This document shows, piece by piece, positions 6,110 to 63,810 of a stretch of DNA of 64,000 nt; positions within the stretch are counted from its first letter, which is position 1; every line of letters starts with the position of its first letter. The stretch lies in the NCBI GenBank assembly GCA_020184695.1, contig JAANOX010000233.1, positions 62,001 through 126,000 of the forward strand. Reading direction: 5' to 3'. The position numbers and the translations under genes are program-made. The notes under the pieces are model-generated. The model was not told where the DNA came from, searched no databases, and saw nothing but the letters and a program-made list of their open reading frames with translations. The stretch comes from Histomonas meleagridis 2922-C6/04-290x. Taxonomy: Eukaryota; Protista; Parabasalia.

Positions 6110-7279
6110 TTATATTAAAAAAGAAAGAACAGATGATGCCATAAGAAGGAAAATGATGTTAGTTCCAATATTATATAATTTTTTGTCACTAGATACTATC
6201 GGAATTATGTTTGTTGTGGGCATCGAGCTCGAGCTAGGATTTGAAGATGATGGCGATGGTGAAGGGATGGTTATATTAAACAATTCATCTGTTTTCATGG
6301 TATAATTGATATTTTGAGGAATTCCTGTTGTATTAATGAATTTTTGATTTTCCTCAGTAGCAAATAAATTTAATTTAAAGTTTGATACTTTTACCCATTC
6401 GCCCATAAATTTGAAACTTGTTGTGGTATTCCTGATATATCCATTGTTATAATAGAAATATACATCGAAAAATTGTTTGCAGATTTCCTTTAGTATCATC
6501 ATTTGAGGATCATCGAAGTATATATTTAAAGACATTGGGTTTGTAACATTAGGTGCGAGAATCATTTTAATTTCATTTGATATCAATATGTAAGGTGTAA
6601 GCATTAAGGAAATATTTTTATTAATTGTCATATTCTTAGGTACTTTACCAATAGTGGTCTCAAGAGTGATATTGTCTTCATAAAAAAAAATGGATATAGG
6701 AAAGTTATTTTCATTTACCCTGAATATTTTATTTGGTGACTGATGCTTTAAGTCTCCTAAATCATTTATCCTATTTGATATTAAATTATTTGCCTCAAAT
6801 GTCCCGTTTACTTTATCACAATTAAGAAGATATAATGTATTTAATTTTATATGGTTAATGAAATGAATATCGAAGTAATTAGAAACCAAAAGAGGAATGG
6901 ATTTAGAAAGATCAGTTTCATTTGACACAATGTCAATAAATGTGTGTTTACTTTTCAGTTCAATAACCATTTTAGAAACATTTGTTAAGTTGACTGTATA
7001 CAAGTGTTCACCACCAAAATCATAATACACATAATTAAAAGCATGATTATAATCTGACATATTTACAAATTGAGTTTCATCTAATTTATTCTCATAATTT
7101 ATAACAGAAAAAGCATTAGCTGCATCATTGCATAATTGTTGAAAATAAGTATCATTTGGATAACGTTTGGTGTAACTACGAATCAAGGATTCGTAAGTAA
7201 AATTATTTTTTTCTGGATATCCATAATAAACATATTTAGCTAAAACACATGAAATCTCTCCCAACAAACAAAGAAACAT
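6110..7279 (-). CDS. Putative surface protein: signal peptide, Ser/Pro stalk, hydrophobic C-terminal anchor; paralog of 59749..60897
   Basis: N-terminus MFLCLLGEISCV, PSPSPSSSNPS stalk and hydrophobic tail; aligns by eye along its length with the 59749 ORF. Confidence 0.75.
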   Translation of the reverse strand: MFLCLLGEISCVLAKYVYYGYPEKNNFTYESLIRSYTKRYPNDTYFQQLCNDAANAFSVINYENKLDETQFVNMSDYNHAFNYVYYDFGGEHLYTVNLTNVSKMVIELKSKHTFIDIVSNETDLSKSIPLLVSNYFDIHFINHIKLNTLYLLNCDKVNGTFEANNLISNRINDLGDLKHQSPNKIFRVNENNFPISIFFYEDNITLETTIGKVPKNMTINKNISLMLTPYILISNEIKMILAPNVTNPMSLNIYFDDPQMMILKEICKQFFDVYFYYNNGYIRNTTTSFKFMGEWVKVSNFKLNLFATEENQKFINTTGIPQNINYTMKTDELFNITIPSPSPSSSNPSSSSMPTTNIIPIVSSDKKLYNIGTNIIFLLMASSVLSFLI

Positions 7280-39398: not shown

Positions 39399-40949
39399 TA
39401 CCATTTTCACATCATGTTGGCCATTTTCTGTTTCAATATGGCCATTTTCCGTTTCAAGGTGGCCAACCGTTTTCTATCGTAAATCTTAAAATTCAAGATT
39501 TAAAAAACCGAATTTTTTTTTGAGTGAAGCATCTTTTAAATTCTATGTTGTAAAATGTTGTATTTGTTTATTATTTTAAAATGTGTATGCCTAGATATAT
39601 GCCTCGTGTCAAAGATTTAGAGGCTTTAACAAAAACAATTGTGAATGGTGAAGATCCTAATGTAGTAGGATCAGCTCTTGGAATGTCTTCAAGGACAATT
39701 AGAAGAAGAACTCACCAAATTATGGAGAATAATTTTAATTGTCCACCAATTTCAAATAGAGGAGGTCCTCATCATCAAATCGTTACTCCTGAGATGGAAG
39801 AATTTATTATAAATTATGTGGAAGAAAACAGTGCATCAACACTTCTCGAAATCAAAAATGCTTTATTAAAACACTTTAAAATACCAAATGATCAGATATA
39901 TTTATCTACAATTCACTGTCATTTGGATGGAAATTTTGTTTCTTATGAAAAGCTTCGCTATGTTTCTGCAAATGCAAATACACCAGAAATAATTCAACAG
40001 CGAGTAAATTATTTAAATCAATTGACAAATTTATCAGAGAGTATTCAACAAATTTACATTGATGAATCAAATTTTACAATTTTGACGAGAAGAAATATGG
40101 GAAGATCTAAATTTGGAAAAAGAGCAGTTCAATCATCATTAATCGATGGATGTAGAAAAATCAATATTTTAGCAGCTGTTAGTCCAAATTATGGTTGGGT
40201 ATACCATGAAACTGAAACAAATAATGTTGATGCAATTCGATTTGAAGAATATTTTAAAAATTTAATTAATGATTTAAAGACAAAATATCCAAATCAAAAA
40301 TTTGTCTTAATTTTAGATGATTATTCAATTCATCGACAATATGAACTACTTAAATTATGCCAAAAAGCTCAGTTTGTACTTTTATTTCTACCACCATATT
40401 CCCCATATCTTAATCCAATTGAAAGATGTTTTAGTCAAACTAAAGCATATGTAAAAAGATATTTACAAGAGAAAAATCAAATTCTTCTGAGTACAATTAA
40501 TCTTCCTTTTGGGAAAAAAGGAGTTGTTCGATTTCAGGTTCTCGAAGAAGCAATAAATGATGCAATTCAAAATGTTACGAGGGAAAATGTACAAAATTAT
40601 TTGAATTATTCATACAAATTTTATCCTATAATATTTCAAATGATACCAATCATAATTGTAAAAATACTCTTTTTAATTATTTATATTATTTTATATGAAA
40701 AAAATTAGAATGTACATATAAAAAATATCGATATTTTTTGGAATACAACATTTTACAACATAGAATTTAAAAGATGCTTCACTCAAAAAAAAATTCGGTT
40801 TTTTAAATCTTGAATTTTAAGATTTACGATAGAAAACGGTTGGCCACCTTGAAACGGAAAATGGCCATAATGAAACAGAAAATGGCCATATTGAAACAGA
40901 AAATGGCCATATTGAAACGGAAAATGGCCAACATGATGTGAAAATGGTA
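39399..40949 (+). mobile_element. Tc1/IS630-superfamily DNA transposon, 1551 bp, long TIRs, TA target duplication
   Basis: Termini TACCATTTTCAC...GTGAAAATGGTA; TA at 39397-39398 and 40950-40951; TIRs at about 39399-39564 and 40742-40949. Confidence 0.95.
39581..40708 (+). CDS. DD34E transposase, intact ORF
   Basis: YIDES, LILDDYSIH and YSPYLNPIE; 34 residues between the second D and the E; N-terminal HTH region. Confidence 0.95.
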   Translation: MCMPRYMPRVKDLEALTKTIVNGEDPNVVGSALGMSSRTIRRRTHQIMENNFNCPPISNRGGPHHQIVTPEMEEFIINYVEENSASTLLEIKNALLKHFKIPNDQIYLSTIHCHLDGNFVSYEKLRYVSANANTPEIIQQRVNYLNQLTNLSESIQQIYIDESNFTILTRRNMGRSKFGKRAVQSSLIDGCRKINILAAVSPNYGWVYHETETNNVDAIRFEEYFKNLINDLKTKYPNQKFVLILDDYSIHRQYELLKLCQKAQFVLLFLPPYSPYLNPIERCFSQTKAYVKRYLQEKNQILLSTINLPFGKKGVVRFQVLEEAINDAIQNVTRENVQNYLNYSYKFYPIIFQMIPIIIVKILFLIIYIILYEKN

Positions 40950-44667: not shown

Positions 44668-45714
44668 ATGAGCAAGGAAGAAAGAATCGAATTCGACGAT
44701 TTAGATCTTCCACCACCACCACCTACTCCAAAAGCAACCAAAAAGGGTAGTTCGGAAAATCGAAAAATTCCTTGGGTGGCAATTATCATAAGTGCATTCT
44801 TCATGATTTTTTTCACGTTATTATTCTTTTGTTCATTCTTCATTCCTCGAAGCAAATACCTTAAAGCTAAAGAAGAACATCCAGATCTAGATTTTTATGA
44901 TGTTTCAACAACTCCAATTGCCTTATATTGGACATATTATTGTGTTATCCTTATATTTTTTGTTGTTTTGCCCTTATTTTTATATTACTGCAATCTTCTT
45001 TTAATCGAAATATTTACATTCTCAAGTTCGGCAGTCATTCTTTTTGGCATTTTGTGTCCCATATATATTCGCATAGAAGAAGCAGTTGACAATGTATTAA
45101 GTAATTCTTATAATTTTTCATCATATGAAAATGATATTAATGAAACAAATAATTGATGATTAATGGCCATTCCATATCTTGAAATTGGTTATACAGGCCT
45201 CTCAAAAGCCCGAGTTGGTAAAAGAACATATCATTACTATTGTAACCCCCCAACGATTGTAAATTATTCAACAAATGCAACAACGTCATATTATCTACCC
45301 GAATTTGGTGACTACGCATGGGTGCAGGTCGAGTTAAACGCGACTTTTTCGCCAGAAGTTTTAGAATATTTTAACAAATACCGTGAAATATATCGGCTTG
45401 CTTTACCAGAAAATGATCAAAACGGAAGAAAAATCACGTGGACAGATATCAGTGGATATAAAATGAAAACTTATAACCCGAATATTGTTTTTGTCAAGAA
45501 AAAAGAATTATCTGGTCGATTGGACCCAGACGTTGGTAAGACAACGATGGCGCTCTGGACAGGGTTTGTTTACGTTTATGAGCTCCTTTCAATACCTATA
45601 TACCGCCCTGTGATTACAAAGTCAAATATTGAAATCAATCTTTCAGTTGATGACATACCAAAGGAAGGCGCGTACTTCTATGAAATATTGAATATGACAA
45701 ACTGTACAAGATGA
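44668..45714 (+). pseudogene. Multi-TM membrane protein gene split by in-frame TGA TGA (45154-45159); paralog of 46814..47873
   Basis: ORFs 44668..45156 and 45163..45714 share a frame. Relative to the paralog there are about 12 extra nt at the stops. Faint TMEM151-like layout (tentative). Confidence 0.7.
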
Positions 45715-46813: not shown

Positions 46814-47873
46814 TTAACACCTATAGCAGCGCGTTTCCTTCAGTTTGGTATAAAAGTAATCTCCTTCTTTTGGAACCATGTCAATTGAAACATTAATTTC
46901 AATATTATTTTTAGTTATTACTGGGCGGTATATTGGCGCGGAAAGTATATCATATAAGTATCCAAGGCCTGCCCAAAACGCTATCATTGCCTTCGCCGCG
47001 GCCGGATTCTTGGCTTTTTTACTCACTAAAATGTAGTGCGTTTTATGCGTTTTCATTTTATAGCCACTTATGTCCTTCCATGCGATAGCTCTGCCATTTT
47101 GATCGTTTTCTGGCAAAGATTTCTGATACAGATCGCGAAATGTGGTCAAATAATCCAAAACTTCTGATGAATATGACACGTTTAGCTCAGTTTGGACCCA
47201 TGCGTAGTCTCCAATGTCAGGTAGATAATATGATGTTGTTGCATTTGTCGAATTAATTTTAACAGTGGAGGGAGTACACATATAATAAATGACATGTTTG
47301 CCGCCCTTTCTTGAAGTGCCTGTGAAACCTACTTCAAGATATGGAAAGCCATTAATCATTTCATTAAGATCACTTTCATATGATGATAAAGATTGAGAAT
47401 AACTTAGTGCATAATTTACAACTTTTAAATCACTTATAAAAATAGGGGTAATAATTCCAAACGAAAGTATAATACCAAAACTTGATGATAAAAGAATTAA
47501 TATTAAATTTGGATGACTAACTATACTCAATACGCAAGAACTGCAAGGGTAAAAAAACAAAAAATACAATAATGCTACAATAATGTAGCCAATAAATTAC
47601 TGTTATTCCAGGATCGTCTTCAAAGAATTCAAGATCTGGATGCTCTTTTTTGGATTTAAGGTACTTGCTCCGGGAAATAAAGAACGAGCAAAAGAAAAGT
47701 AATGTGAAATAAATAATGAAGAAGGCACTTATAAGGATTGCAATTCCAGGATTTTTTTTTTTTTCGTTTTTTTCAGCTTTATCATTATTTTCTGGTGGAC
47801 CCTGTGATGGGAGAACTAAACCGTTGAGATTGCTTTCTTGCTCATCAAGGGATTCTAAATTCATTTCGAACAT
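46814..47873 (-). pseudogene. Multi-TM membrane protein gene with a frameshift near 47520; inverted paralog of 44668..45714
   Basis: ORFs 47517..47900 and 46814..47569 together align with the 44668-45714 product (AILISAFFIIYFTLLFFCSFFI; PYLEVGFTG; YRPVITKNNIEI). Confidence 0.7.
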
Positions 47874-47925
47874 TTGAGTTTGACGATCATAACCCACCAA
47901 TTAAAAACGGGTAGGTATATAATGC

Positions 47926-48002
47926 GGTCGGGAATGATCACGAGGTCCCTAGGGGCCCCGCCCCCGGCGGGGCCCCTAGGGACCTCGTGATCATTCCCGA
48001 CC
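47926..48002. repeat. Perfect 37-bp inverted repeat with a 3-nt loop (GC-rich hairpin) at the left end of the element
   Basis: ggtcgggaatgatcacgaggtccctaggggccccgcc-ccc-ggcggggcccctagggacctcgtgatcattcccgacc, checked base by base. Confidence 0.98.
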
Positions 48003-48447
48003 TTTACTTTTCACTGGGGGGATTTCCGGGGTCTTCGACCCCCGGAGGTGCCCTTCGGACCCCTCCGGAGGTCTCAGACCCCTTCAATCCCCGAGTGTGC
48101 TCGCTCCGCTCGCAACAAAAATCAAAATGATTTTTGTGAGCCATACAATTCGATAGAAAATTTGAATGAGCATTCAATTTTTGAGAGAACGCGAAACTTT
48201 TTCATAGGGACGATAGCACTTTTTATACCACTTTTCGCATAAACCTATCAAAAACCTCGTATAACCAGCACAAAATGTCCCCGGTTATGTTTGGCCGGAC
48301 ATTTATCCTATTCAATTTATCTTTGGTCAGAGGTTTGTAGTCAAAAAGCGACGGTTATATTGTTTGGTCGCATGGCAAACTTTATTTTTATAAACGAATG
48401 GTCAGAATACACAATTTTAAAAATGTCACATCATCACTTCACTCTTT

Positions 48448-48906
48448 ATGAATACAGATTACTATTCAGTTACAAAACTTGCAGATTTTATGAAAGAAAA
48501 AGATCCAGATGCTACAGCGGTTGCTTTATTTTTTGAACCCAAAGATGACAAACTTGGTAATTTTAACAATTTTATAATCAAGCCAATTGGCATGATCATC
48601 AAACATAGAAATTTCCAAGATTTTTATTTTGTTCATAAAGAGTTGATCGAATTCTTCAAACAAAGAAATATCAAAGTTTCAGTACCAATAACTGATAACA
48701 AAAAGCCACCACTTACTAATAATATTCATTATTTAGAGATTCATTTAACTCTATTAGAGAGTAATTTTGGAAGATGGTATCATGCATTTCTATATGAATC
48801 AACGAACACTGAAGTTAATAATATACTCATTTCAAATAAAATACCTGATAATAATGAATTCCAAACAGTATTTGACATGAATTCAATCGATCCTGATAGT
48901 TTTTAA
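48448..48906 (+). CDS. Element-encoded hypothetical protein (152 aa)
   Basis: Intact ORF preceded by TCACTTCACT initiator-like sequence; no motif recognised. Confidence 0.6.
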   Translation: MNTDYYSVTKLADFMKEKDPDATAVALFFEPKDDKLGNFNNFIIKPIGMIIKHRNFQDFYFVHKELIEFFKQRNIKVSVPITDNKKPPLTNNIHYLEIHLTLLESNFGRWYHAFLYESTNTEVNNILISNKIPDNNEFQTVFDMNSIDPDSF

Positions 48907-49387
48907 AGCTCTAGTTTGAATAAAAAAAACAATAATCACTTCATTTTTTTTTTGTCTTTTGATGAATTTCTTTTTACATTTGATTTCTATAATGATTATT
49001 TCAATAATTTTAACACTTCACCTGTTGACAATGCTCAAAGCAATACGAAAAAGACAATATATATTAATAATGTTTTTTCTTCATTATGGTCAGTAGAAAA
49101 AATTGTTAAAGATTTAAATAAACAAAGAAACAATGTTTTTTATTTTTATTTATTTTCTTTTTCATAAGGTATAACATATATTTCACTATTTTGTCTTAAA
49201 GCTGAAAATGATATTGGTTGTTCAAATATAATTGCATTTGTAAATGACACTCTTCTCTGTTTTTCTATATCTTTTAAATTTCTAATTTCAGGAATATCTA
49301 ACCTATTTTTTTGTTGTAATAGGTTTCTATAACCTCAGGTTTATAATTCGACATTTATAAAAATGATTTAAATTTTAACAAAATTAC

Positions 49388-49480
49388 TTTGAATTTTTGA
49401 AACTAAAATATACCAAATTGGACGCAGGCGTCCTTTAAGGACGCCTGGGATTTGGTATATTTTAGTTTCAAAAATTCAAA
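49388..49480. repeat. Long palindrome: 31-bp perfect outer arms plus an 11-bp GC-rich inner palindrome
   Basis: Arms 49388-49418 and 49450-49480 are exact reverse complements; inner caggcgtcctt-t-aaggacgcctg. Confidence 0.95.
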
Positions 49481-49572
49481 AAACAATATATATATATAAA
49501 TAATATTTTATTATTTCTTTTGTCCAACTAGTGCATTAGCTACACCATCTATCACAGGTGAGAATTTATCTG

Positions 49573-49716
49573 CTATTTTAATTCCTTTTGAGGTTTAGCT
49601 ACTTTATTCCAAACATTTCCAATAAATCTACCGACTGGTTTAATAATTTTATTTTTAATCCAAGCACCAGCTTTTTTAAATCCGTTTTTAATTTTGTTCC
49701 AAAAACCCCACGCCAT
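49573..49716 (-). CDS. 47-aa cationic amphipathic peptide (MAWGFWNKIKNGFKKAGAWIKNKIIKPVGRFIGNVWNKVAKP...)
   Basis: Manual translation from ATG 49716 to TAG 49573; below the ORF-track length cutoff. It may extend through a frameshift. Confidence 0.7.
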   Translation of the reverse strand: MAWGFWNKIKNGFKKAGAWIKNKIIKPVGRFIGNVWNKVAKPQKELK

Positions 49717-49746
49717 AAATAATAATAAAAATAAATAATTATTTCT

Positions 49747-49965
49747 TTATTTATAAAATGCAGGATGTAAATTAGAAAAGATCTTATCATTTGCTTCCAT
49801 ACCTACTGGTTTGAATATAGGAGCTATTCTATCACCTACTTCAAATATTTTATCTACAGGTAATTTCTTTAAAGGTCCTATCTTTTTAATATCTTCTTTA
49901 TGTTGTTTTGCAAATTCATAACCTTTTGCAATATGAGGACTAATTTTTGCGAATCCTTCTTTCAC
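49747..49965 (-). CDS. Small basic amphipathic protein (GTG start; ATG possibly lost)
   Basis: GFAKISPHIAKGYEFAKQHK...KIFEVGDRIAPIFK shows helical amphipathy; lies divergent from the capsid gene. Confidence 0.5.
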   Translation of the reverse strand: MKEGFAKISPHIAKGYEFAKQHKEDIKKIGPLKKLPVDKIFEVGDRIAPIFKPVGMEANDKIFSNLHPAFYK

Positions 49966-49978
49966 TTTTTATATAAAA

Positions 49979-51581
49979 ATGAACAAAATGATCAAGGTAA
50001 TGTTGGAGCTTATTTTGATCGTCTTAAAGATTTAATTGCTAAAAATGATGGTACTCGTTCTTTTATTTTAAGAACTGAAGATTGTCATGATCAAAATGCA
50101 CCATTTAATCAATCACAAGAAACTAGATTAAGAATTACTCATGGTGATCATATGATTTCACAAATAACTGAAGGTTTTATTAATTTTAAACTTAGAATAA
50201 CTGTACAATTATCAAAAGCTATTTCATCTGGTAATTTAACAGATCCAGAAAATTTAGCTAAAATATTTATAGGTTTTAAGAGTTCTAATCAATTATTAGA
50301 TCAATTACAAATTATGTCTAATAATATTTCTACTGGTTATCAACAAAAATGAATGTTGTCGTGAAGGTTATTGTAATTGTACAAGTAAACCCTTATGCTG
50401 AAAAGAAAAACTAGGAAAATATACACATTCTTTATATGAAAATGTTTCAGAATATTCTCAATCTGTTTGTGGTACTTATGTTGATTTAAATACAATTGCA
50501 GATGGAAATAAACATGATATCGAATTTGAAATGAATCTTCCATTTGAAGATATATTAGCTTTACAAGCATTTGATTTATATCCAAATAGATTAGTTGGTG
50601 ATATTGAATTAAAGTTTTATGTTAAACAAAATGGTTTAGTATGGTGTCAAGTAGATCCACGTAAAATTAAAGAAGTGAAAGAATTTTTAGAAGATTCTTC
50701 TATTAATGCTACATTTAAATAATTTACCTTTATTCACTCATGGTTTTACTCAAATAGGTAATTCTGCTAATGTAACTACTACATTTAAATGTGGTACTGA
50801 AACTAATCATACTATTGATACTGCAACTGAGAATGTTTCTTTATATTGTACAGGTTTAACAGTAGTTTCATGTAAATCTAATATGTTTGGTTTTGGAGTT
50901 AAAGAAGAAACTTTAAATCAAATAGCTCAAATACTTCAACAACCTGGAGGTTTAGTAATTCCTTCACAACAATTAGATTATAATGCATTTGCTTTAGCTG
51001 CTACTGAATCTGGTATACAATCTACTATTAATATGCCATTATTTAATGTTACAACTATTACAGTTGTATTTCCAAAACATGCTAATGATTATACTTGTTT
51101 CGATAATCCTATTTATAATAATGTTCAATTAACTATTGCAGGTCAAAATTATCCTGATGAACCTATTTCTACTTTAGGTGCTAGATTTTTACAATATCAA
51201 TTAGTTGCTTCTGATTTAGATGGTGGTATACAATGTACTAAAGAATTTGAAGATTCTTTAACTATGGATAGAAATGCTTCAAATGGTACTAGATATAATA
51301 ATACATTAAGTGATGCTACTTCATTTATGCTTAATATACAATGTGAACGTTCACGTGGTGGTTACGTATTTGATGGTTTAGATTCTAACGGTCAAAATAT
51401 ACCAATACAAATTAAAGGTCAACCTATTTATACTCAAGCTAATGATACTTATTATAATGTTGATGATGCTGGAAATCATCCACCACCACCACAATTATTC
51501 ATTTGTCGTGATACTTATTTTACATTAGATTTACACAATGGTTTGAAATACCATGCTAATGGTACACCAGATGGTTATTAA
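49979..51581 (+). CDS. Probable major capsid protein (double jelly-roll), about 530 aa, broken by several +1 frameshifts
   Basis: Segments 49900..50352, 50531..50722 and 50706..51581 join into one beta-rich reading (IFIGFKSSNQ; FEMNLPF; GDIELKFY; ITVVFP; VQLTIAGQNYPD). Size and context next to an A32 ATPase fit an MCP. Fold inferred. Confidence 0.7.
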
Positions 51582-52628
51582 ATAAACATTTATATTTATA
51601 AAATATTATCAAATTTTTGACTAAAACCTTTGTGGCAAAGTTATTTGATATAATTTAAAAAATATAATCTTGCTCAGGTACCACTAACGTCCTCCGCAAG
51701 ATGAAGGCCTAGCAAAAATTATTTTTATTTTTAAACGTCCTCAAATAACGGTCTTTTGAAAAATAAAATTAAACCTAACCCCCACTACTAGCACACTTTA
51801 TACTGATCACCTGTCTACGCCCTTTTATAAAAAAGTGCTCCGCGGAGTCGGGCTTCGGCAGGTTTGTGATAAATGCACTCATTCGCCATTAGGGCTCTCT
51901 TTGGGGGGAGGGGGGGATTAATTTTATAAAATAAAGAAAAATTAAAAAAGAAAATTTAATAGCCCATTGAGCGAACAAACTTTGTTATTAACACTCATGT
52001 GCATAGTCAAAAAGAAAAAAAAGTTATATCGAAAAAAAACCTATAGATAAAAAGAAATGTTTTTACAACTGACTAAACATCAAATTAAAAAAATTAATTG
52101 AAAAAATGTCAAAAACACATCAAAAAAGCAAATTTAACTACGTACGATAAAAATTGAATAAAATTACAAATGTCACAATAAATTTAAAAATTTTAAATAT
52201 GTCAGTTATCGTTAAAAATAAAAAAGGTATGTCAAATAACTAGGTGAAAGTAACTGTCAAACCATCGATTGTAAGAGCTTAGATTGATTACTGATTCCAT
52301 TCCTTGGATACTTTACTAAAGAGAAATAAGTTATATAAAAAATCGAACAGTGTTAGTCAATTACTATTGGCAATTAAGAGAATGAAAAAGTGACAAAAAG
52401 GAAATATCATATGAAAAACATCATATTTACTAATATCAATTGAATGGTTTACACGAAAAGTGACAATATAATCATCTTGGGAAAAGTGGATAAGATAATA
52501 TGATGCCAAATGGAGTATAACATTGAATGGAACACATCATAACTTTGCCACAAAAGTATGATTATAGAATTTAAATATTTCAAAAAGTCGAATGACCAAA
52601 GAAGAAAAAAAATAGTGTCATTTCATTT

Positions 52629-52838
52629 ATGGAATACGAAATCAACAAGATAATAGACCATGAAATAAGATATAACTACACGGAAAATAAGTACATAGTA
52701 TGGTTCAAAGTGGAGTGGAGTTGCGATAACACTAGATCATGGATAAGATATGAAGACCTTAATGCCGATTATCTACTAAACAATTACATGTTCAAACTAA
52801 CAAATGAAGAAGTAGAAGAAGTAATGAAAAACATTTAG
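52629..52838 (+). CDS. Stand-alone chromodomain protein (69 aa)
   Basis: YEINKIIDH...FKVEW...SWIRYEDL...LLNNY matches the chromo consensus YEVEKILDH...YLVKW...TWEPEENL...LLxxY; TCATTT initiator before the ATG. Confidence 0.85.
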   Translation: MEYEINKIIDHEIRYNYTENKYIVWFKVEWSCDNTRSWIRYEDLNADYLLNNYMFKLTNEEVEEVMKNI

Positions 52839-53097
52839 TAAACATCTAAATAATAAAAAGAATTATCTAATTCATTAAAAGTAAATAAACAAATGAGATA
52901 AAAATGAGAATAAAAACATCAAATTACAATTTCTAAATGTAAAGTATTGAAATATTATCATATAATAGAAAAGTGACAGAAATACCCCCATCTAAAGGTG
53001 GTTACGCCTAGGACAAGACCTCAACTTTCACGAAAGAGTCCTAAAAGGCCACAAGATCCACCAGAAAGTCATTAAATAAATAAAAAATGACTTACTC

Positions 53098-53132
<35 letters not shown>

Positions 53133-53437
53133 TTTTTATTAATAATTATTTTCATTTTGAGTGTTTTCTTCTTGAGTTTGTTGAGTTAATGTATTAGCGT
53201 ATTGTTGCAATACATTTAATTTACCTAAGTAAGCATTATATTTATTTAAATCATTATTAAATATTTGATTTAACAATTCCATTTTAGATATTTGATAAGC
53301 TTGATCCAATTGTTCAGGCGTTATATTTTGCTATAGAAAAGGAAGGTTTAATATTAATTTCACTAAAATCACAATCTTTAAATTCTTGTGCAAAGCATGT
53401 AATAAGATATTACATTAAAAACTAATGAAGTGATAGA

Positions 53438-54276
53438 ATGCATTTGATGAAAATTATTTTTATTTTATGGAAAAACGATATTAATATTGATGCATTAGAT
53501 AATATGATTGATTATTGTTTATATAAAAATAAACCTAAATTAAATGAAGAATTAATAAGTGAAATTCATCCAGAAGTGAATGTACCTTATAATTCTTTAA
53601 ATATAGCAGTAGGTAGACAAAGAAGTGGGAAAACTCAATGTATAATTAGAGAAATTATTAAAATTAGTAATATTAGTCCTAGAACTCATTTATTAATTTA
53701 TATTAATAAAAAAAAAATAAAAAATGATCCTACATTTGAATCATTAAAACCTTTAATTAAAATCCCAATTTATATATGTAGCTGAAAAACAAGCAGAAGA
53801 TATAGTTAAAGATATATTAAAAATGGAAACAATTTTATAATGAAATTAAAAAAAATAATCATTGGGAAAATAAAAATAGTAGATAATCAAATAACTGAAT
53901 TATTTGAAAAAAATTATATATTTATAATTTTAATGATTTAACTTTACATACGATAATATTTTTTGAAGATTGTGCTAATAGTCCTTTATTTAAAAATCCT
54001 ACTAATTATTTTAATCAATTATTTACTAAATTAGCTCATATTCAATGTTCTGTATTTTTCGCTGTTCAATTTTGGAAATCTTTACCTGCTGAAGTTAAAG
54101 CTAATGTAAGTACTATATTTATATTTCCTAATTTCTCTAAACAACAATTAAGATATATGATTGAACAAATACCATTACCTTATACTAAAGATCAAATTTA
54201 TTCAGTTTATCAAAAATTAACTGGTCATCAAAAAATGATTATTGATGTTAATAATCAAAATATAAAAATTGAATAA
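53438..54276 (+). CDS. A32/FtsK-HerA-family genome-packaging ATPase, frameshifted
   Basis: Walker A GRQRSGKT, Walker B IIFFED, and a downstream KLAH...FAVQFWKSLPAEVKAN motif; stop at 54276; start uncertain. Confidence 0.88.
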
Positions 54277-54306
54277 AATAATTTTTTATAAAATCATTTT
54301 TTTTTA

Positions 54307-55368
54307 ATGCAACAAGATGTAACATATGGAACGCGTAGACCACGAAATGAAGATGGTACACGTATATATCCACCAATTATTAAAAAAGAACGTGAAAGAT
54401 ATGTTACAGAGGGTGATGCTAAATATATTTTTGATGATGATTTAAGTCATTATAAATATCATGGTGCTGATAGTACATTAATTGATGAGAATATGAAAGC
54501 TTTAGCACATCTAATTCTTGATTTAAAGAAAGATGTTAGAAAAGTTAGAGATGCACAAACATATAATGGTGCTTTGGAATATGTTAACAAACATAATGAT
54601 GGTAAAGATCCAAGATATCATTGGTCAGTAAAACAAGAAGATATTAATGAAGATGGAATTCCAGATATTATTATAAGAGATCAACATAAAAGAGCTAAAT
54701 TTGTTAATGGATGGACAGTCAAAAAACAAGATCCTTATCAAGTAGCATATATGGAATATTTACAAAATAATTATGGTAATCCTACAAAAAGAAGACAACA
54801 TAGAGCAGATGGAAAGAAGATTAAATCTTTCAATGAATGGCTAGATAGTGAAGTAAGAACAGTAAAATATGATAAACCATTCGATGATCCAACTGTCCAA
54901 TATAATCCTGAATATGATGAATTTAGGGAAAAAGTGAAAAGGGCTAATGATAACTATTATAGAGATACTGGTGTTATGAATATTTATAAATTACATAGTA
55001 CTCAAGAAGAAGGTCAGCAAATGCAGTATTTACAAGTTTACTTGTTAAAGATGCATATAAAACTTTCGTTGATAAATATGAAGGTAATAGTGAATATCAA
55101 GGAAGAATTAGGGGTTATTGTCCAATACTTCAATTATCTGCTGCATTATACAAAATTAATGGTAATTCCTAAAGTAGAAGAACTATTAAAAAAACGTAAT
55201 ATTCCAAATATTGAAGCAGGTAAAAAATATAAATTGGAGACAGGTGAAAGTTATTATTCAACTGCTTGTAAAAAAGTTGTTACTGATTTGTTAGAAGATC
55301 CTAACCATGAACAAATAATGTTAGATGCAGTTAAAAAAATATGTAGTAAGTATAATTGGTACACCTAA
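54307..55368 (+). CDS. Element-encoded hypothetical protein with a DxNxDG Ca-binding-like motif
   Basis: EDINEDGIPDIIIRD within a 353-aa hydrophilic ORF; the middle section may contain compensating frameshifts. Confidence 0.6.
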   Translation: MQQDVTYGTRRPRNEDGTRIYPPIIKKERERYVTEGDAKYIFDDDLSHYKYHGADSTLIDENMKALAHLILDLKKDVRKVRDAQTYNGALEYVNKHNDGKDPRYHWSVKQEDINEDGIPDIIIRDQHKRAKFVNGWTVKKQDPYQVAYMEYLQNNYGNPTKRRQHRADGKKIKSFNEWLDSEVRTVKYDKPFDDPTVQYNPEYDEFREKVKRANDNYYRDTGVMNIYKLHSTQEEGQQMQYLQVYLLKMHIKLSLINMKVIVNIKEELGVIVQYFNYLLHYTKLMVIPKVEELLKKRNIPNIEAGKKYKLETGESYYSTACKKVVTDLLEDPNHEQIMLDAVKKICSKYNWYT

Positions 55369-55425
55369 TGGATTAGCAGATGAGTAAGTTAATAAACAAA
55401 AATTTTTAAAATCATTATTTTTTTA

Positions 55426-55950
55426 TGATTAAAAATAAGTGATTTCTCACCCCATGTAGGGAAGAATAATACTGAACATAATAGTTCTAGTGCTAATTGT
55501 AAAGTTATTATTAATAATAACAATAGTGAAACACCAGCACATTATCCTGAAGTTAATGAAGAAACATCAAAAATAATTACAAGAGAAACTGATCTTAATA
55601 CTGATAATGCTAGTGCTTTATATAAACATATAGCTTTAACATTTAGTGCGATATTAAAAACAAATAATATGAAATTAATAGCAAATTTAATTGATAATAG
55701 TGGTAAAAATTATAATTAATGCTAATGATTTAGTACAAGCTATAAGTTTAATTTTTAGAAATTGATTTTTAATCAAGTTAGATTAAGTTATGAAGATCCT
55801 GAACCTGGATGTTTAAAACATGTAAATCCAATTAAAAAAAGTTAATTCAATTAAGATTAATGGGTATGATTTTTAATTCTCAATATAATAAAGAATATAA
55901 CACATTAATGGATGAATTTAATATTTCCTTAGAAAAAGTATTTATTTATT
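55426..55950 (+). pseudogene. Fragmented element-encoded gene of unknown function
   Basis: Coding-like segments in shifting frames (TDNASALYKHIALTF; YEDPEPGCLKHVNP; YNKEYNTLMDEFNISLEKVF). Confidence 0.45.
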
Positions 55951-57080
55951 AATAAAACATCATTGGATCTTTTTCTTTTGAAGGTATAATAATTGCATTT
56001 GGAACTGGATTTAATAAATATCTTGGTACTGACATTTTTATTCCTTTATCATTATGAATATTAAATTTACCTTTTTCAAAATTATCTACTATATAAATAT
56101 CTGGTAATATTTTTGATCTCTTTTTTAATTGATCTGTGTTATAAACTGTTACTGTTGTACCAGGAGGTAAATAAAATCCTTTTTGTTTCATAATATTATA
56201 ATTTAATTTATGTAAGAATAAACCAAAAAATTTTTGTTTTATTTTGACTTCATATGGTGATATTTTTTTATGATTTAATTTAGATAATGTTTTATGATAA
56301 GTATAATTATAATTATGTATAATTTTATTCATATCATGAGGTTGAATATATTCTAAACCCATATTATCAGCCATATCTCTAATAGTTCTACAAATTCTAT
56401 TAATTATAGCTAAAGATGAATGTATAGGATAAGATTTATTTTTAATTATTATTCTCTCAACAGGAATTATTTTTAGTACCAATTAAATGATTTGAAATAT
56501 ATTGTAAAGGTTTTTGATATAAAAATGTTGTTTCTGAATCACAATGAATAATTTTAGGATTAAATAAACCTGTACCATAAAGTTCAAATAAAGCTTTAGC
56601 TACACTTTCAATTGATTTTTTACTATGTTTATCGTTTATTTTAATATTAGTGAAAGTACCAAATAAATATCTAGTTTGTACTTCTACAGCTAATAAATAA
56701 CAATAATCATAATCAAATTCATCACTATGTGAAAAAAATAAATCCATTTGATATTCTCCATTACCTCCAATATATTTTAATTGATATTTTTTATTTAATT
56801 TGAAAGGAAAATAATTTATATTCGGTTTTATTATATTTAATTTTTTTAAATAAATATTTATTTTTTTATTTAAAGTTTTAAAAACCTGTATTAATATTTT
56901 GGTTTATCTTCATAAATATTGTAAGAATCATTTGGAGTTACATATCTAAAATGATAAAAATAATATAAAAGATATAATGAATAAGCATAATCTAATGGAA
57001 TATTTTTCTGTTATATTTGAGTTACTTAATTTTTGTAATTAAGAAATTAATAAATTCTTGTATAGTTTTAGGTTTCCCAT
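55949..57080 (-). CDS. Retroviral-type (rve) integrase, Polinton-like, frameshifted
   Basis: YQMDLFF (first D), AVEVQTRY, IIHCDSE (second D), HSSLAIINRICRTIRD, NYNYTYHKTL...ISPYEV. N-terminal part reconstructed from ATG 57080. Confidence 0.85.
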
Positions 57081-57097
57081 TTTTTTAAAATCATTTT

Positions 57098-57619
57098 CTA
57101 CTTCTTTTTGCAAATATTTTTATGAAGTAATTTTCTTAAAGGTGTATATTTTAGAATAATAGATTTATAATAGTTATAATATTCATTTAATGGATATAAA
57201 CCTATATGTCCATCAATATAATCTATATTATATTTTTTAATAATATCATTAATTAATTTCTTAAATTCATCAAAATCTAAATTTGTATTAATTTGGGTTT
57301 TTTTGAAAAAATTTATAATAAAACTATTAATAATGATTTGATAATATTCTTTCATAGACTTAAATTGAATTCTATATGTGGGTGATATTGGAACCCCATT
57401 TCTAACAGATTTTGTTGCTTCATCCATTAGTTTTAAAAAATTATTTAATGATAAATCAAATTTCAAAATACGAAAAATCACTCTTAAATTTTGCATTAAA
57501 AATTCGTAAAAAGAAGGCTGTTTTTCAGGTCCTTTATCATTAAGTAGAGCTAATCGTCGTACTTCATCTAATGGAGATTTATTGATGCTAGGTTCTTTTT
57601 TTGGTTCACGTTCTTCCAT
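57098..57619 (-). CDS. Element-encoded hypothetical protein (173 aa)
   Basis: Intact ORF with a TCATTTTT initiator-like motif upstream; no motif recognised. Confidence 0.6.
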   Translation of the reverse strand: MEEREPKKEPSINKSPLDEVRRLALLNDKGPEKQPSFYEFLMQNLRVIFRILKFDLSLNNFLKLMDEATKSVRNGVPISPTYRIQFKSMKEYYQIIINSFIINFFKKTQINTNLDFDEFKKLINDIIKKYNIDYIDGHIGLYPLNEYYNYYKSIILKYTPLRKLLHKNICKKK

Positions 57620-57652
57620 TCTAAAAAAATAAAAATGAAATAAAAATATTTT

Positions 57653-58997
57653 TTATTCTTTAAATATACTTAATAAATGATCATCTATTTTACCTGTTAC
57701 TTTACCAACTATTGAATTTAATATTGTAGTTAAAGCATAAACATTACCTGTTAAAAATACAGGTGAACCAATTTGAAATTGTGTTAAGTCTTCTTCAACA
57801 GGTGCATTATGAGTAATAGTTGTATTTATTTGCTCTTGTCCTCCATTATCAGTAATATAATATTCATTTCCTTCTTTTGATATAAAAGTTAATTCTGTGG
57901 TAGTACATTGTATTCTCCATGCATAATCACCTCCAAGACCATCCTTACTATGCATATCTATATAAGGACCTGTTTCTAAAACACCATCGTTTTTAATAAC
58001 TGCAATTGAAGGTACACTAATATCTACATTCGAATATGAAGGAGAAGAATTTAAAGCAAAACCATTAATTGTTGAACATGTGATATTTTCTGGATTTGAT
58101 ACTGTAGGAATATCTGTTAATTCATTATAACTATGTGTATGATTTGTAGCAGCATATTTTGTATCATGATTATGATCTTTCAGAGCATACTCCGTATGTG
58201 TATGTACTGAGGGTGGAAATGTTTCAGGTTTATCAGATAAATCATTATAACTATGCGTATGTTCTGAAGGTGGGAATGTTTCAGGTTTATCATTTAAGTC
58301 ATTATAACTATGAGTATGAACTGTAGGTGGAAATGTTTCAGGTTTATCATTTAAATCGTTATAACTATGAGTATGTTCTGTTGAAGCATAGTTTGTATGT
58401 TCATGATCTTTTTTAGCATAAATCTCATCATGATTATGATCATTTAAAGATATTTTAGTTGTGTCTACGTTATAAATAGTTGCACATTGAATATTGCCAT
58501 TACTACCAAAACTTAATAATGAACCAGTTTTTGATTTAAAATCTAATGAATTAGTATTAGCAGTTATTCTCCATGTATTATCTTTATCATAATCTGCATT
58601 ATTATGCATATCAATATATTGTCCAACTTCTACAACACCATCTTCTTTTAATGTAATAATAGATGGCACATATAATTTTGTATCCCATTTACCACCTTCT
58701 GAAGTTGCCAATTGACAACCATCTAAAGAAGTAACTTGTACATTCCCCATTTACTGTTAAATCATTATTTATTGTATTATGAGTATGACTTTTTTTTTAT
58801 TTTTTTTCATCTGATTGCGATTTATTATAATATAATTGAGGTAATGTAATCGAAGTTATAGTATTAAGTTTTTCTGTTATTTGATCATTTGTAGGATAAT
58901 TTTCTAAAAGTTCTTGTAAGTCATCTTTATCAATAATTTCAGGAGCAGCAACAACATTAGTTTTTATACCTTTCGTAGCATTCTCAATACTAAACAT
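57653..58997 (-). CDS. Virion fibre-like protein with phage tail-fibre motifs, frameshifted near 58750-58800
   Basis: Three 19-aa HTHSYNDLxDKPETFPPxx repeats, several HxH motifs and a duplicated DGVxExGxYIDMH...W/YRI module; ORFs 58797..58997 and 57653..58750 join. Confidence 0.75.
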
Positions 58998-59019
58998 TGA
59001 TAAAAAATGATTTTTTTAT

Positions 59020-59371
59020 TTAATAAATTAATAATAATTCTAACATAAAATATTCTGGATCAATTTCTTTACCATTCATTTCTTTAAACCATATTTTCAA
59101 ATTTTGGTTTTTCTACTTTTTATATTCATATTTCTTATATTTAGTCCTGTTTTTCATTTGTATAAATACAAAAAAAATAATCTTCATAATGGTCACGTTC
59201 AATAAAATCAGCATGCATTGAAACATCAGATACTAAATAATCCTTAAATTTACACTTACATTGCTGTACTACAATATATCTAGGATTTTTGAGAATCGAC
59301 AAATTCAGGCGGAAAACGGTTTTTTTATTTTGTGAACTACAAAAATACGTTTTAGTCACAGGTTTAAGCAT
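59020..59371 (-). CDS. Probable minor capsid (penton-like single jelly-roll) protein, about 117 codons, frameshifted
   Basis: ORF 59141..59371 continues after a frameshift to LKIWFKEMNGKEIDPEYFMLELLLIY (stop 59020). The beta-rich pattern resembles Polinton/PLV penton C-termini. Confidence 0.55.
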
Positions 59372-59748
59372 TTATAAAAATGAAGTTTGCCGTGCGACCA
59401 TACCTACCAAAACGCATAATGAAAAGTGACAAAAACGAATTAATTTGTGTTTTCTTATATTGAAGTTGAATTAAGAAAAAATTATTTCAAAGCAAAAAAT
59501 GCAATTATTTTTAAGCTTTCTAATTTGCTTAGGGAGCAAGGAAAATTTACAGAAACAATAATAATACAAAAAAATGATAAATTTTGATTAAAAATTCATT
59601 TATTGCTGAATAACATCCAAGTGATGATTGTGTCTAATATATGTATACTCAATTTTTCAAAACTTTTTTATTTTGATGTTGGCTTTATCTTTTACTAAAA
59701 CAAATATACAAAATCTTTGTAATCTTAGCTTTTAGAATGAATTTTTTC

Positions 59749-60897
59749 TTACATTATATAAGAAAATATTATTGATGTCATAAGAAGAAGAACTACACCA
59801 TATGCAAGATTATCAAATCTTTTACCACTGGATACAGGCGATATTGGTAACGAGTTTGATCCTGATGCTGACATAGGTGTAGAAGATGTTGATGTTGGTG
59901 AATCGAAGGATATATTAAACAACTCATCATTTTTCAAAGTATAAGTAATATTTTGTGGAAATCCTGTTGTATTAATGAATTTTTGATTATTCTCTGTAGC
60001 AAGTAAATCCAATGTGAAGTTTTGTACTTTCTCCCATTCACCTATAAATTTAAAACCAATTGTGGCATTGCGAATATATTTATTTTGATCATAGAATTCT
60101 AACTCAAAATATTGATCGAAGATTTTTATATATGTCAATAAATCAGGATCTTCAAAGTAAATCTTTAAAGACATTGGTCTTGTAACATTGGGTGCAAGAA
60201 TCATATCAATTACGGCTGATTCATATCGGTATGGTGAAAGCATTAAAGAAATATTTTTATTAATTGTTGAATTTTTAATTTTATGGGTTAATGTGATATT
60301 ATCTTCATTAAAGATAATTGAACTAGGGAAATGATTATTTGGATAAAAAATTTTTAATTGTGATCGATGTGAAAAGTCATTTAAATTGCTTGTGATTAAG
60401 TTTTTTGCTTCAAATGTTCCATGTACACTATAACAATTAACAAAATATACTGTATTAAGTTTCACATAGCTAGTGAAATTAACATCAAGGAGATAAAAAT
60501 ACAAAAAAGGTATGGAATCTGTAAGATCGGTTTCATTTGACAAAATGTTAATGATTGGACCTCTTCTAGATTTTATCACAATATCCATATCAGAAGCATG
60601 AGTTAAGTCAACTGTATAATTATGTTTAGTATAAAAATCATAAAAAATATGGTTAAAAGCTTTATCATATTCTGATACATTTATAGTTTTAGTTTCATTC
60701 ACTTTATTTTCATAATTAATAACAGAAAAAGCTTTTGCTGCATCAGTGCATAATTTTTCAAAATATTTATCACCTGGATGTCTTTGGATGTAAACGCGCA
60801 TCGTATCTTCTAATGTTTCATTAATTATTTCTGGGTATCCATAATAAACATATTTAACTGAAACGCATGAAATCTCCCCTAACAAACAAAGAAACAT
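59749..60897 (-). CDS. Putative surface protein, paralog of 6110..7279
   Basis: Same MFLCLLGEISCV start, shared YENKxxET and NQKFINTTG motifs, S/T/P stalk, hydrophobic tail. Confidence 0.75.
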   Translation of the reverse strand: MFLCLLGEISCVSVKYVYYGYPEIINETLEDTMRVYIQRHPGDKYFEKLCTDAAKAFSVINYENKVNETKTINVSEYDKAFNHIFYDFYTKHNYTVDLTHASDMDIVIKSRRGPIINILSNETDLTDSIPFLYFYLLDVNFTSYVKLNTVYFVNCYSVHGTFEAKNLITSNLNDFSHRSQLKIFYPNNHFPSSIIFNEDNITLTHKIKNSTINKNISLMLSPYRYESAVIDMILAPNVTRPMSLKIYFEDPDLLTYIKIFDQYFELEFYDQNKYIRNATIGFKFIGEWEKVQNFTLDLLATENNQKFINTTGFPQNITYTLKNDELFNISFDSPTSTSSTPMSASGSNSLPISPVSSGKRFDNLAYGVVLLLMTSIIFSYIM

Positions 60898-61762: not shown

Positions 61763-62084
61763 TTTTTTGAATTTAACGTACGAAAACGACAATTTATTAA
61801 TCCGAAGGCTTTCTTCTTGATTTGTTCATAATATGTTTAAAAAGACACTAGCGGGAAAAACCCCCCTAAATAGAAAAACTATATTTAAGATCAAGACTGG
61901 CAAGTGCTACAAAACATTTCCACTTGTTTTTCTCATCATAGTAAACTATTGAAATTCATTTTTTCAAACGATCAATATTGATTGCTTTATAAAACGGCCG
62001 ATTATGATCATTATCAATTGAAAATGTTTTCTTAATTTATTTGACCGCATTATGCCATGTTGTATACCATATTGTTCGTCGTGC

Positions 62085-63810
62085 TGTTGCAAGAGAAAAA
62101 GCGCCTGACTTCACTTTCTCCACTTTTTGAATGAACTCATAGAATTGTTTGTATGAGATGATTCAAAAAGTGGATTTTACAACGAGTAAAAGAAAATTTC
62201 ATATGAGATTTATCAAAAAGTGAACTTTGTACTGAATTTTTAATTCCCTTCACTTTTTGATGGAACTCATAGAATTGTTTGTATATGAGAATTCAAAAGT
62301 TTATTCCGTCACTTTCTTGTTGTTTATATGAGGGGGTGCCCCATTGTATCGTTTCCACTTTTTCAATGGTTTATTTTTCAATGAAGAAGAACTCAAGTAA
62401 CGACGATCCGAGAAATGGCATCGATATCCAAGCATTCCGTCAATCAATTAATGACAATGGAGTCGAAGATACACGGAAAATATTCCATATCAGTCGAGAG
62501 AAGATCCATGCAATTTGCAAACTCGAGGGGATAGCAATTCCTAGCCGAGGGAGACCGTCAAAGGAAATCAAAGAAGAGAAGTTAATTTTTGCCTCGACTA
62601 CAAAGACAAATACCATGTTGGCTACCAACGAACTGCTGAGTCTGCTAAGCGACATAACATTGCAACTACTGAGTGGTCAGTTAGGAAGATATTTACTGAA
62701 CAGAAACTGCTTTGTTACAAGAAACCTGAAAAGCTCCCCAAAGAACATCTCCGTCTTTTCGTTGCAAAATATGCTAATCAGTTATGGCATGCAGATATTC
62801 ACTATGTTACCATTGAAGGAGAACAATTTTATCTCCTTGGATTCATTGATGATCGTTCTCGCTTCCTGATCTATTATGAAGTCCTATCAAGTAAGACTTC
62901 TGAAGCTTGTGCCACGGCGCTTATTAAAGCTCTAGGTTCTGTTGTACATCGACCTAAAATGCTGACTATTGATAATGGGGGAGAATTTACCGGCAATCCA
63001 TTTCAATTTATACTCCAGCTTTATGGTATTGAAGATTACCGTACTCACCCCTATACTCCAGAGGAGAATGGGAAAATAGAACGTTTTTGGTTGACGATTG
63101 AACGTGCCAAAGGACCAAATGTTGCATGGAGCATTCCTAAGATTAATAGCATAATTCATGAATATAATTATTTTTGGACGCATCGAAGTTTGAGAAAACT
63201 CACTCACCAATCCTCAACACCCTATGAAGCATGGCGCACAATGGATAGGTATACAGGTCAAACTGATGCTTGCATTGAAATGATTAAATAATTCCATCTC
63301 ATTTGATTTTTATTATTTTTTATGTTTACTTATATTATATAAGCCTAGTACTGATATGAACAACGATTGCTTAATTTTCATGTGCTTAATCGAACTGGAT
63401 GCATCCAGCTAGCTTGTGCTACTATATATTAATATATTGGTATTTTTTCTTCTATTATCAATATATGCCGATACCACTTTTTGAATATAACATTCAAAAA
63501 GTGGTATCGGCATGTTTTGTAAACCATTCAATTTTTAAATTTCGATGCACACATATAATATATTCGCTTAGTATCATTAAAAAGTTGCGACTACAAGCAG
63601 GATTAATAGTCGTTCACAGGCACGGACGGGCCGATACCACTTTTTGAGGGCACTCAAAAAGTGGTATCGGCGATCATTTCGGGGCCCCCTGTCGTAAATG
63701 CAATTCAAAAAGTTCGTATGATATTTTTTTCTATTAACAAATAGAATTTATTCTATGAGATCATTCAAAAAGTGGAGAAAGTGAAGTCAGGCGCTTTTTT
63801 TCTTACCACA
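62085..63810 (+). mobile_element. IS481EU/Banshee-like DNA transposon, 1726 bp
   Basis: TGT...ACA termini; about 61-bp imperfect TIRs (62085-62145, 63750-63810); 15-bp TSD TATTG(T/A)TCGTCGTGC at 62070-62084 and 63811-63825; rve transposase. Confidence 0.9.
62381..63291 (+). CDS. IS481-like DDE transposase; HTH and catalytic parts offset by a -1 frameshift at about 62545-62590
   Basis: The -1 frame reads WHADIHY (D), FIDDRSR, LTIDNGGEF (D), YTPEENGKIERFW (E), YNYFWTHRSL. Confidence 0.9.

Follow-up and report, generated by a model that had tools for sequence, protein, structure and literature searches.

We propose, with moderate confidence, that an 11,499-bp insertion in the parabasalid poultry parasite Histomonas meleagridis is one copy, broken and without a polymerase gene, of a multi-copy Maverick/Polinton-type element that likely belongs to H. 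meleagridis itself. Predicted genes for capsid, packaging and integrase persist in it, and for its movement it probably relied on the protein-primed DNA polymerase B (pPolB) of a related element in the same cell. The insertion occupies positions 47910..59408 of the window, that is, of the whole 64,000-nucleotide stretch analyzed here (contig JAANOX010000233.1 of assembly GCA_020184695.1, strain 2922-C6/04-290x, positions 62,001 to 126,000 of the forward strand), and all coordinates are those of this 64-kb window. Membership was judged by a published list of Maverick/Polinton features (10.1101/2023.08.22.554363; here and below, a cited paper stands for the part of its text that was available). 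The element has a 6-bp target-site duplication (TSD; 5-8 bp listed), an rve integrase, an A32-like ATPase and capsid proteins of the double and single jelly-roll types. Its terminal inverted repeat (TIR) measures 9 bp (38 bp if both pieces of a split repeat are counted) against the 100-1500 bp listed, its length lies below 13-25 kb, and pPolB is missing. It is an endogenous parabasalid virus of the Maverick/Polinton type and, by the criteria of polymerase, TIR and size, not a full Maverick. At 90% identity, the named sequences that cluster with three proteins, two of the element and one of the host, are from H. meleagridis, and the flanking host genes are eukaryotic with long open frames.

The boundaries of the element are defined by the following features.

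47904..47909: left TSD AAAACG, a direct sequence match with the right copy
47910..47918, forward strand: left 9-bp TIR GGTAGGTAT, a GGTA tandem pair; similar in the relative L001 (GGTAGGAAT)
59400..59408, reverse strand: right 9-bp TIR, from the sequence
59409..59414: right TSD AAAACG, a direct sequence match with the left copy

The terminal inverted match stops at the tenth base, and in an AT-rich window chance alone could account for a 9-bp TIR flanked by a 6-bp TSD: the chance background amounts to 20 such pairs at a spacing of 3-30 kb, two of which have at least four G/C. The exact ends given in the original prediction are borne out by further evidence. The motif GGTAGGWAT is found in the window at both element ends only (expected 0.34; a count of two was reached in 3 of 100 shuffles). 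Contig depth summed over the DNA runs X1 and X2, which is not a copy number, changes in the very bins that contain the left and right ends, from 613-1,666 in the left flank (three bins) and 34-192 in the right flank (two bins) to 55,773-371,110 in the core bins. The element is multi-copy. Because two contigs of run X6 depart from the window sequence exactly at 47910 into dissimilar DNA (agreement 0.68), other insertion sites share the left end, an observation made by run-contig mapping only. The element lies upstream of a host gene (47517-47873), at a distance of 37 bp from its ATG; together with its neighbor (46814-47359), this gene resembles an inverted duplicate of a gene pair within 44668-45714.

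The element had also been called complete. This holds for its intact ends but not for its function: the gene of the major capsid protein (MCP) is in three open reading frame (ORF) pieces, the genes for ATPase, integrase, fiber and penton are broken, and pPolB is absent. As assembled, this copy cannot move, replicate or package with its own genes.

A profile built from 60 related pPolBs, run unfiltered in six frames, had no match in the window, and tblastn with 120 pPolBs gave no match in the element and one weak match in a host gene outside it; the element has no room for a pPolB. Pfam and ORF scans of the element found no helicase, primase or nickase. Relatives were taken from 47 loci and 7 added ones (L048-L054). 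The pPolB profile is positive in 5 of the 47 (L001, L042, L027, L018 and L007) and in L052 among the added loci, and pPolB or a piece of it is present in 6 of the 10 loci of at least 7 kb, the remaining four being open-ended contigs. In L001/L042 and L018, pPolB lies downstream of a small gene that stands head to head with the ATPase gene; the corresponding place here is taken by a variable segment.

51582..53138: variable low-copy segment, the slot where relatives carry pPolB, from depth and locus comparison
52629..52838: 69-aa chromodomain-like ORF inside the low-copy segment

The segment has no stop-free frame of more than 80 codons. Over a 1.4-kb stretch (bins 51637-53037) its depth is 3,859-41,148, which is 5- to 50-fold lower than that of the core, and positions 52577-52936 are covered by a single 360-nt contig with zero differences and the depth of single-copy flank contigs. 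The 69-aa ORF lies in this part at single-copy depth. The original prediction had listed it as a chromodomain gene, and by eye it resembles one; the Pfam Chromo family gave no match at E up to 5 and the PDB no meaningful one, and the assignment is not supported. An inverted repeat at 51611-51644 / 52539-52572 (perfect core of about 17 bp, no clear TSD) is perhaps the remnant of a nested element.

A tree of 24 C-terminal MCP parts (from 10 of the 47 loci and 13 chosen proteins; midpoint root, deeper forks left open) places the window MCP with P0001 and seven gut loci at a support of 100/98, and L027 in a separate clade. The window clade includes gut elements with pPolB, and pPolB is also present in the more distant L027 and L052. 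Because it occurs on both sides of the tree, its absence from our element would most simply be a loss. The small size of the element is due to the lack of the pPolB gene of its closest relatives, and the copy makes better sense as a derivative without polymerase than as a small virus family in its own right.

A helper polymerase may be present in the host. H. meleagridis has a pPolB elsewhere, 60% identical to that of L001, and the repeat table of its genome paper holds 11 Polinton-1_TV matches of 1.6-2.2 kb among 264 rows (PMC8529796), which probably represent pPolB. That these long matches number 11, versus 61 MCP matches in H. meleagridis, supports dependence on a helper. Alternatively, the family could be an ordinary autonomous Maverick family of about 15 kb, of which this copy inserted whole and later, as it decayed, lost pPolB when sequence of the low-copy segment was deleted or replaced. 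We regard this history as rather unlikely. It is favored by the partly copy-specific pPolB slot, by the broken state of most genes of this copy with an internally deleted fiber gene, and by the T. vaginalis Mavericks, which often lack some of their genes and of which TvMav3 retains pPolB in 74.3% of copies (PMC12289875). In addition, P0123, a 94% identical sister of 54307-55368, is located on a 15,577-bp host contig that may be the repeat-table contig with a 2.2-kb Polinton-1_TV match ending at 15,579; if so, a pPolB-bearing member of the family would exist. However, several copies (17 contigs at 51792) share the initial 400 bp of the slot, which contain no pPolB remnant, and the long Polinton matches are far fewer than the MCP matches.

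According to our fold analysis, the ends of the element carry more structure than a short TIR. The original prediction was right that the TIRs are unusually short, at 9 bp, and missed both the left hairpin and the 29-nt block complementary to sequence at the right end.

47926..48002: perfect 37-bp GC-rich hairpin with a 3-nt loop, at the left end only (fold z -13; depth as in the core)
48012..48095: second GC-rich fold-back, imperfect, from fold analysis
48366..48394, forward strand: 29-nt block, complementary at 27 of 29 positions to 59371-59399, the inner part of a split TIR, from sequence match
49388..49480: internal hairpin of 93 nt with a 31-bp perfect outer stem (z -14.2; core depth)

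The left hairpin starts 7 nt past the left TIR and 16 nt inside the element end, while the folding test of the right end found no hairpin (z -0.15). Read inward, the right end consists of the 9-bp TIR followed directly by the 29 nt that pair with 48366-48394; on the left, this split TIR (9 + 29 bp) is interrupted by 447 bp at core depth. The 29-nt block has no further match of at least 20/29 anywhere in the window. It adjoins a gene start at each end and may be a shared promoter instead of a TIR remnant. An Rfam search returned nothing but look-alikes of hairpins, all below threshold.

In L001, the likely left end is GGTAGGAAT, the sole GGTAGGWAT among the 47 relative loci; the motif precedes an imperfect hairpin (28 bp, loop of 3 nt; z -7.5) unrelated in sequence to that of the window, and the end adjoins a DDE_1 transposase flank. 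As far as sequence comparison goes, a pPolB-bearing relative thus has the same left-end design of short motif plus hairpin. The combination of a very short TIR and a one-sided hairpin seems undescribed among Mavericks, and this end design is the part of the element that seems new. Our literature search, which did not extend to Repbase, most subscription papers and some supplements, returned no account of the element's architecture.

Three side observations concern the hairpins. The one at 49388-49480 lies between the amphipathic genes and an orphan gene and might act like a terminator or represent a very small insertion. In host DNA, 62119-63671 and 1978-2004 of the window contain several hairpins whose arms read CACTTTTTGA/TCAAAAAGTG. 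The word TCAAAAAGTG recurs near the left ends of gut relatives (L001 2500-2560, L008 1-340, L009 1-230).

How might a copy without a polymerase have moved? We hypothesize that the family integrase excised and inserted the element, leaving the 6-bp TSD, and that DNA synthesis was primed at the GGTA-GGTA ends by the pPolB of a helper. For Polintons, slide-back priming is known at short tandem repeats of the termini. One strand on its own could fold into a panhandle of 9 + 29 bp that leaves the hairpin segment looped out, and the capsid, penton, ATPase and fiber proteins of the family could package the element. We think it improbable that the element makes no use of pPolB and that, once excised, it is copied by host enzymes from its left hairpin as primer, as proposed for palindrome-ended polinton-like viruses (PLVs) and virophages, the loss of pPolB then reflecting the switch. 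A very stable one-sided hairpin beside a TIR whose length does not allow a stable panhandle would suit such a scheme, as would the terminal palindromes of Halocafeteria, which accompany non-pPolB replication genes (10.64898/2026.07.28.741278). But L001 combines the same hairpin design with pPolB, so the hairpin is no marker of pPolB independence; moreover, it sits 16 nt inside the end, and the element yielded no nickase, helicase or primase.

The virion genes that such packaging would call upon are the following.

49972..51581, forward strand: MCP gene in three ORF pieces, 75%, 75% and 73% identical to the intact relative P0012
59023..59371, reverse strand: broken gene of a minimal penton (minor capsid protein), starting 37 bp from the right end; 45-60% to relatives of 113-143 aa
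53438..54276, forward strand: broken gene of an A32-like packaging ATPase, with Walker A and B in the alignment; 57-64% to relatives
57653..58997, reverse strand: fiber/tail-repeat protein gene in two pieces, 96-97% to the H. meleagridis 'minor tail protein' P0125
49573..49716, reverse strand: small basic amphipathic protein of the MAWGFWNKIK type, conserved in relatives and distinguished by its hydrophobic moment
49747..49968, reverse strand: second small ORF of amphipathic type, which overlaps the start region of the capsid gene with its 5' end; weakly matched by 97-aa ORFs of relatives

The model of P0012, built from a 64-row alignment, has a pLDDT of 91.8 and is a double jelly roll. Foldseek matched it to the double jelly rolls of PBCV-1, SGIV, Sputnik and mavirus (E 1e-13 to 1e-9; MCPs of the first three at E 1e-13), as did the viral library. 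By way of this intact relative, the MCP of our element is predicted to be a double jelly roll. A 115-aa penton relative was modeled as a single jelly roll with a pLDDT of 75. Compared with 48,161 chains, its top seven matches are all viral pentons or capsid proteins, the best being the mavirus penton with a middling score (Z 7.7, rmsd 2.7, 104 aligned). Both capsid candidates of the original prediction therefore gain the jelly-roll folds expected of them through the models of their relatives. Its A32-like ATPase is upheld by the Walker motifs and the identity to relatives, the Pfam score being below the cut-off; a profile of this ATPase found no relative in the PDB. The fiber gene agrees with P0125 and with PHROGs tail families (E 1e-7); it is about 75 codons shorter than its sister copy and contains a 57-bp repeat in 3.3 copies. 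The first amphipathic gene is backed by its conservation and by a hydrophobic moment equalled by only 4 of 1000 shuffles, and its product is a candidate membrane-active virion protein. Contigs of two runs that we guess to be RNA cover the capsid and DxNxDG genes, and both end at 51590, just past the capsid stop; we do not count them as expression.

The remaining genes comprise the integrase and several orphans.

55949..56903, reverse strand: rve-type integrase, split over two frames (Pfam rve; alignment with relatives)
57098..57619, reverse strand: 173-aa orphan; relatives have long integrase N-termini
48448..48906, forward strand: 152-aa conserved orphan; weak phmmer matches (E ~1e-3) to 130-154-aa ORFs of L001, L028, L042 and L003
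54307..55368, forward strand: conserved orphan with a DxNxDG motif, 23-36% to relatives and 94-97% to two named H. meleagridis proteins
55426..55880, forward strand: broken orphan ORF with no significant match to relatives
53139..53330, reverse strand: remnant of a conserved 123-131-aa gene that is head to head with the ATPase gene in relatives (phmmer E 3e-6 to L018, 3e-4 to L001)

The integrase gene of the original prediction is recovered, in broken form, by weak rve scores and by its alignment with relatives; its profile reaches the HTLV-2 integrase at E 0.11. The third catalytic position is Asp in all five aligned relatives and is not acidic in this copy. The 173-aa orphan is possibly the lost N-terminal extension of the integrase. 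By eye, the ORF at 55426 resembles the 160-aa family of L027/L030/L052, and this likeness failed a profile test. The orphans had no match in Atlas (at 0.9 or above) or PHROGs, nor, for the 152-aa and DxNxDG orphans, in Pfam. An adenain-like protease had no Pfam match among the 21 ORF pieces, three orphans being without fold models. At several gene breaks most run contigs differ from the window (from 12 of 87 indel rows), and for this reason other copies are likely open there. Accessory modules differ among the relatives, which include a dNMP kinase PF21448 (L003 3838-4464), a DUF5906 helicase-like protein (L007 6222-7634) and an HNH endonuclease (L027 11616-12197), and L003 has an 897-aa coiled-coil protein ahead of its integrase; none of these four has a counterpart in the element. 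Elsewhere in the window, a 375-aa ORF at 39581-40708 resembles an IS630/Tc1-type transposase in its motifs. Positions 6110-7279 and 59749-60897 encode paralogous secreted or membrane proteins of 380-390 aa with no Pfam family, and a 170-bp tandem repeat occupies 9-809 (4.7 copies, 92% matches).

Several points weigh against a polymerase-less copy moved by a helper. The polymerase-less state with a TSD is known from one host copy, and the expected pPolB slot differs between copies. The sole host pPolB found (P0401), a fragment of 410 aa, could belong either to this family or to the second MCP family of the host; among the best 120 of 713 full-length pPolB matches there is no named Histomonas protein, the host pPolB appearing only among shorter proteins. 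The Pfam scores of the ATPase (Pox_A32, E 0.012) and the integrase (rve, E 0.008) are both below the cut-off. The comparison of ends relies on one relative, L001, and on its left end only, and the element is known from sequence alone. An assembly chimera of several copies in the middle of the element, with the missing polymerase and the many breaks as artefacts, is very improbable: no run contig spans the element, false consensus in such repeats is documented (PMC10120064) and the breaks are concentrated in the element, with open ORFs of 600-2174 aa in the host DNA, but the TSDs match on both sides and the zero-difference 360-nt contig at single-copy depth covers the unique part, so that sequence exists.

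Could the end design mark a whole clade? More tentatively, and as a possibility that we rate below even chances, gut-parabasalid Mavericks would have swapped long TIRs for a 9-bp terminus and an origin hairpin on one side only, whose structure but not sequence is conserved. In Histomonas they would then have given rise to a family of 10-11-kb satellite proviruses with the whole virion module and an integrase but no replication enzyme, which spreads on a helper polymerase and possibly supplies capsids to the helper. If this copy alone lost the polymerase, what we describe is a Maverick in ordinary decay whose ends are unusual.

A polymerase of their own and long TIRs are the defining features of Mavericks, whose replication, to our knowledge, has never been directly shown. 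The 9-bp TIR, the split panhandle and the one-sided hairpin shared with a pPolB-bearing relative offer specific cis-signals in a culturable protist. TIR filters of at least 100 bp (as in PMC12220804) would miss such elements. In the available text of the H. meleagridis genome paper, DNA transposons make up 0.22%, and only RepeatMasker fragments of Polinton-1/2_TV are listed (PMC8529796). Because the MCP count implies about 3%, Maverick-type elements are under-annotated in this genome. Close relatives are common in gut metagenomes, where they are mislabelled within bacterial metagenome-assembled genomes (MAGs): near-identical gut relatives (L048-L054) are in three bacterial MAGs, likely as eukaryotic contamination. 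L012 and L019 fuse element genes with bacterial genes, likely through misassembly.

Among known systems, the capsid leads to the Metamonada (MMN) group of Maverick-Polinton MCPs, defined with metamonad or Evosea hosts, in which MMPC_40 unites MCPs of S. strix, T. vaginalis and Entamoeba (PMC10120064). The same paper counts 61 and 72 MCP matches in two Histomonas assemblies, in two clusters that we read as MMPC_40 and 41, with 25-38 H. meleagridis matches in the former. By BLASTP, the window MCP is 38% identical to that of Streblomastix strix (E 2e-55) and probably belongs in MMPC_40; a motif comparison with the MMPC_41 reference did not reveal the second MCP type of the host among the relatives. 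The original prediction of a Maverick/Polinton-like parabasalid virus with jelly-roll capsids thus stands, while its small distinct family gives way to a published MCP group, for which the available parts of the paper count MCP genes and give no Histomonas element ends or gene content.

T. vaginalis Mavericks measure 15-26 kb, with TIRs of 100-900 bp and frequent gene loss (PMC12289875). TvMav3 shares the integrase, the A32 ATPase and the capsid-like and phage tail-repeat proteins with our element, with no protease in the gene list available, and the canonical ends of T. vaginalis Maverick classes 1 and 2 start with a similar four-base tandem, AGTTAGTA. In contrast, TvMav3 is 15-26 kb long with a TIR of 100-130 bp and carries pPolB (74%), primase (92%) and KilA (82%), whereas the Histomonas element has 11.5 kb, a 9-bp TIR and none of these genes, nor DUF4106.

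The gut-metagenome elements L001, L042, L018 and L007 are closest, with MCPs at 73-78% and with ATPase, integrase, penton, fiber, the amphipathic pair, the DxNxDG protein and two orphan families in common; they differ in gene order and by the presence of pPolB (in L007 also of the DUF5906 gene). Their host is likely a gut parabasalid. No relative of the element was present in the viral contigs searched. Helper-dependent remnants and terminal palindromes are described for PLVs and virophages (10.64898/2026.07.28.741278). Those of Halocafeteria seosinensis resemble our element in having a palindrome beside the TSD in an rve-integrating jelly-roll element. Their palindromes, however, lie at both ends inside long TIRs (mean 485-808 bp) and accompany non-pPolB replication genes, whereas the Histomonas element has a hairpin at one end and no replication gene. 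Our element belongs to a known Maverick group, MMN, and its end structure looks distinct from that of the described trichomonad Mavericks.

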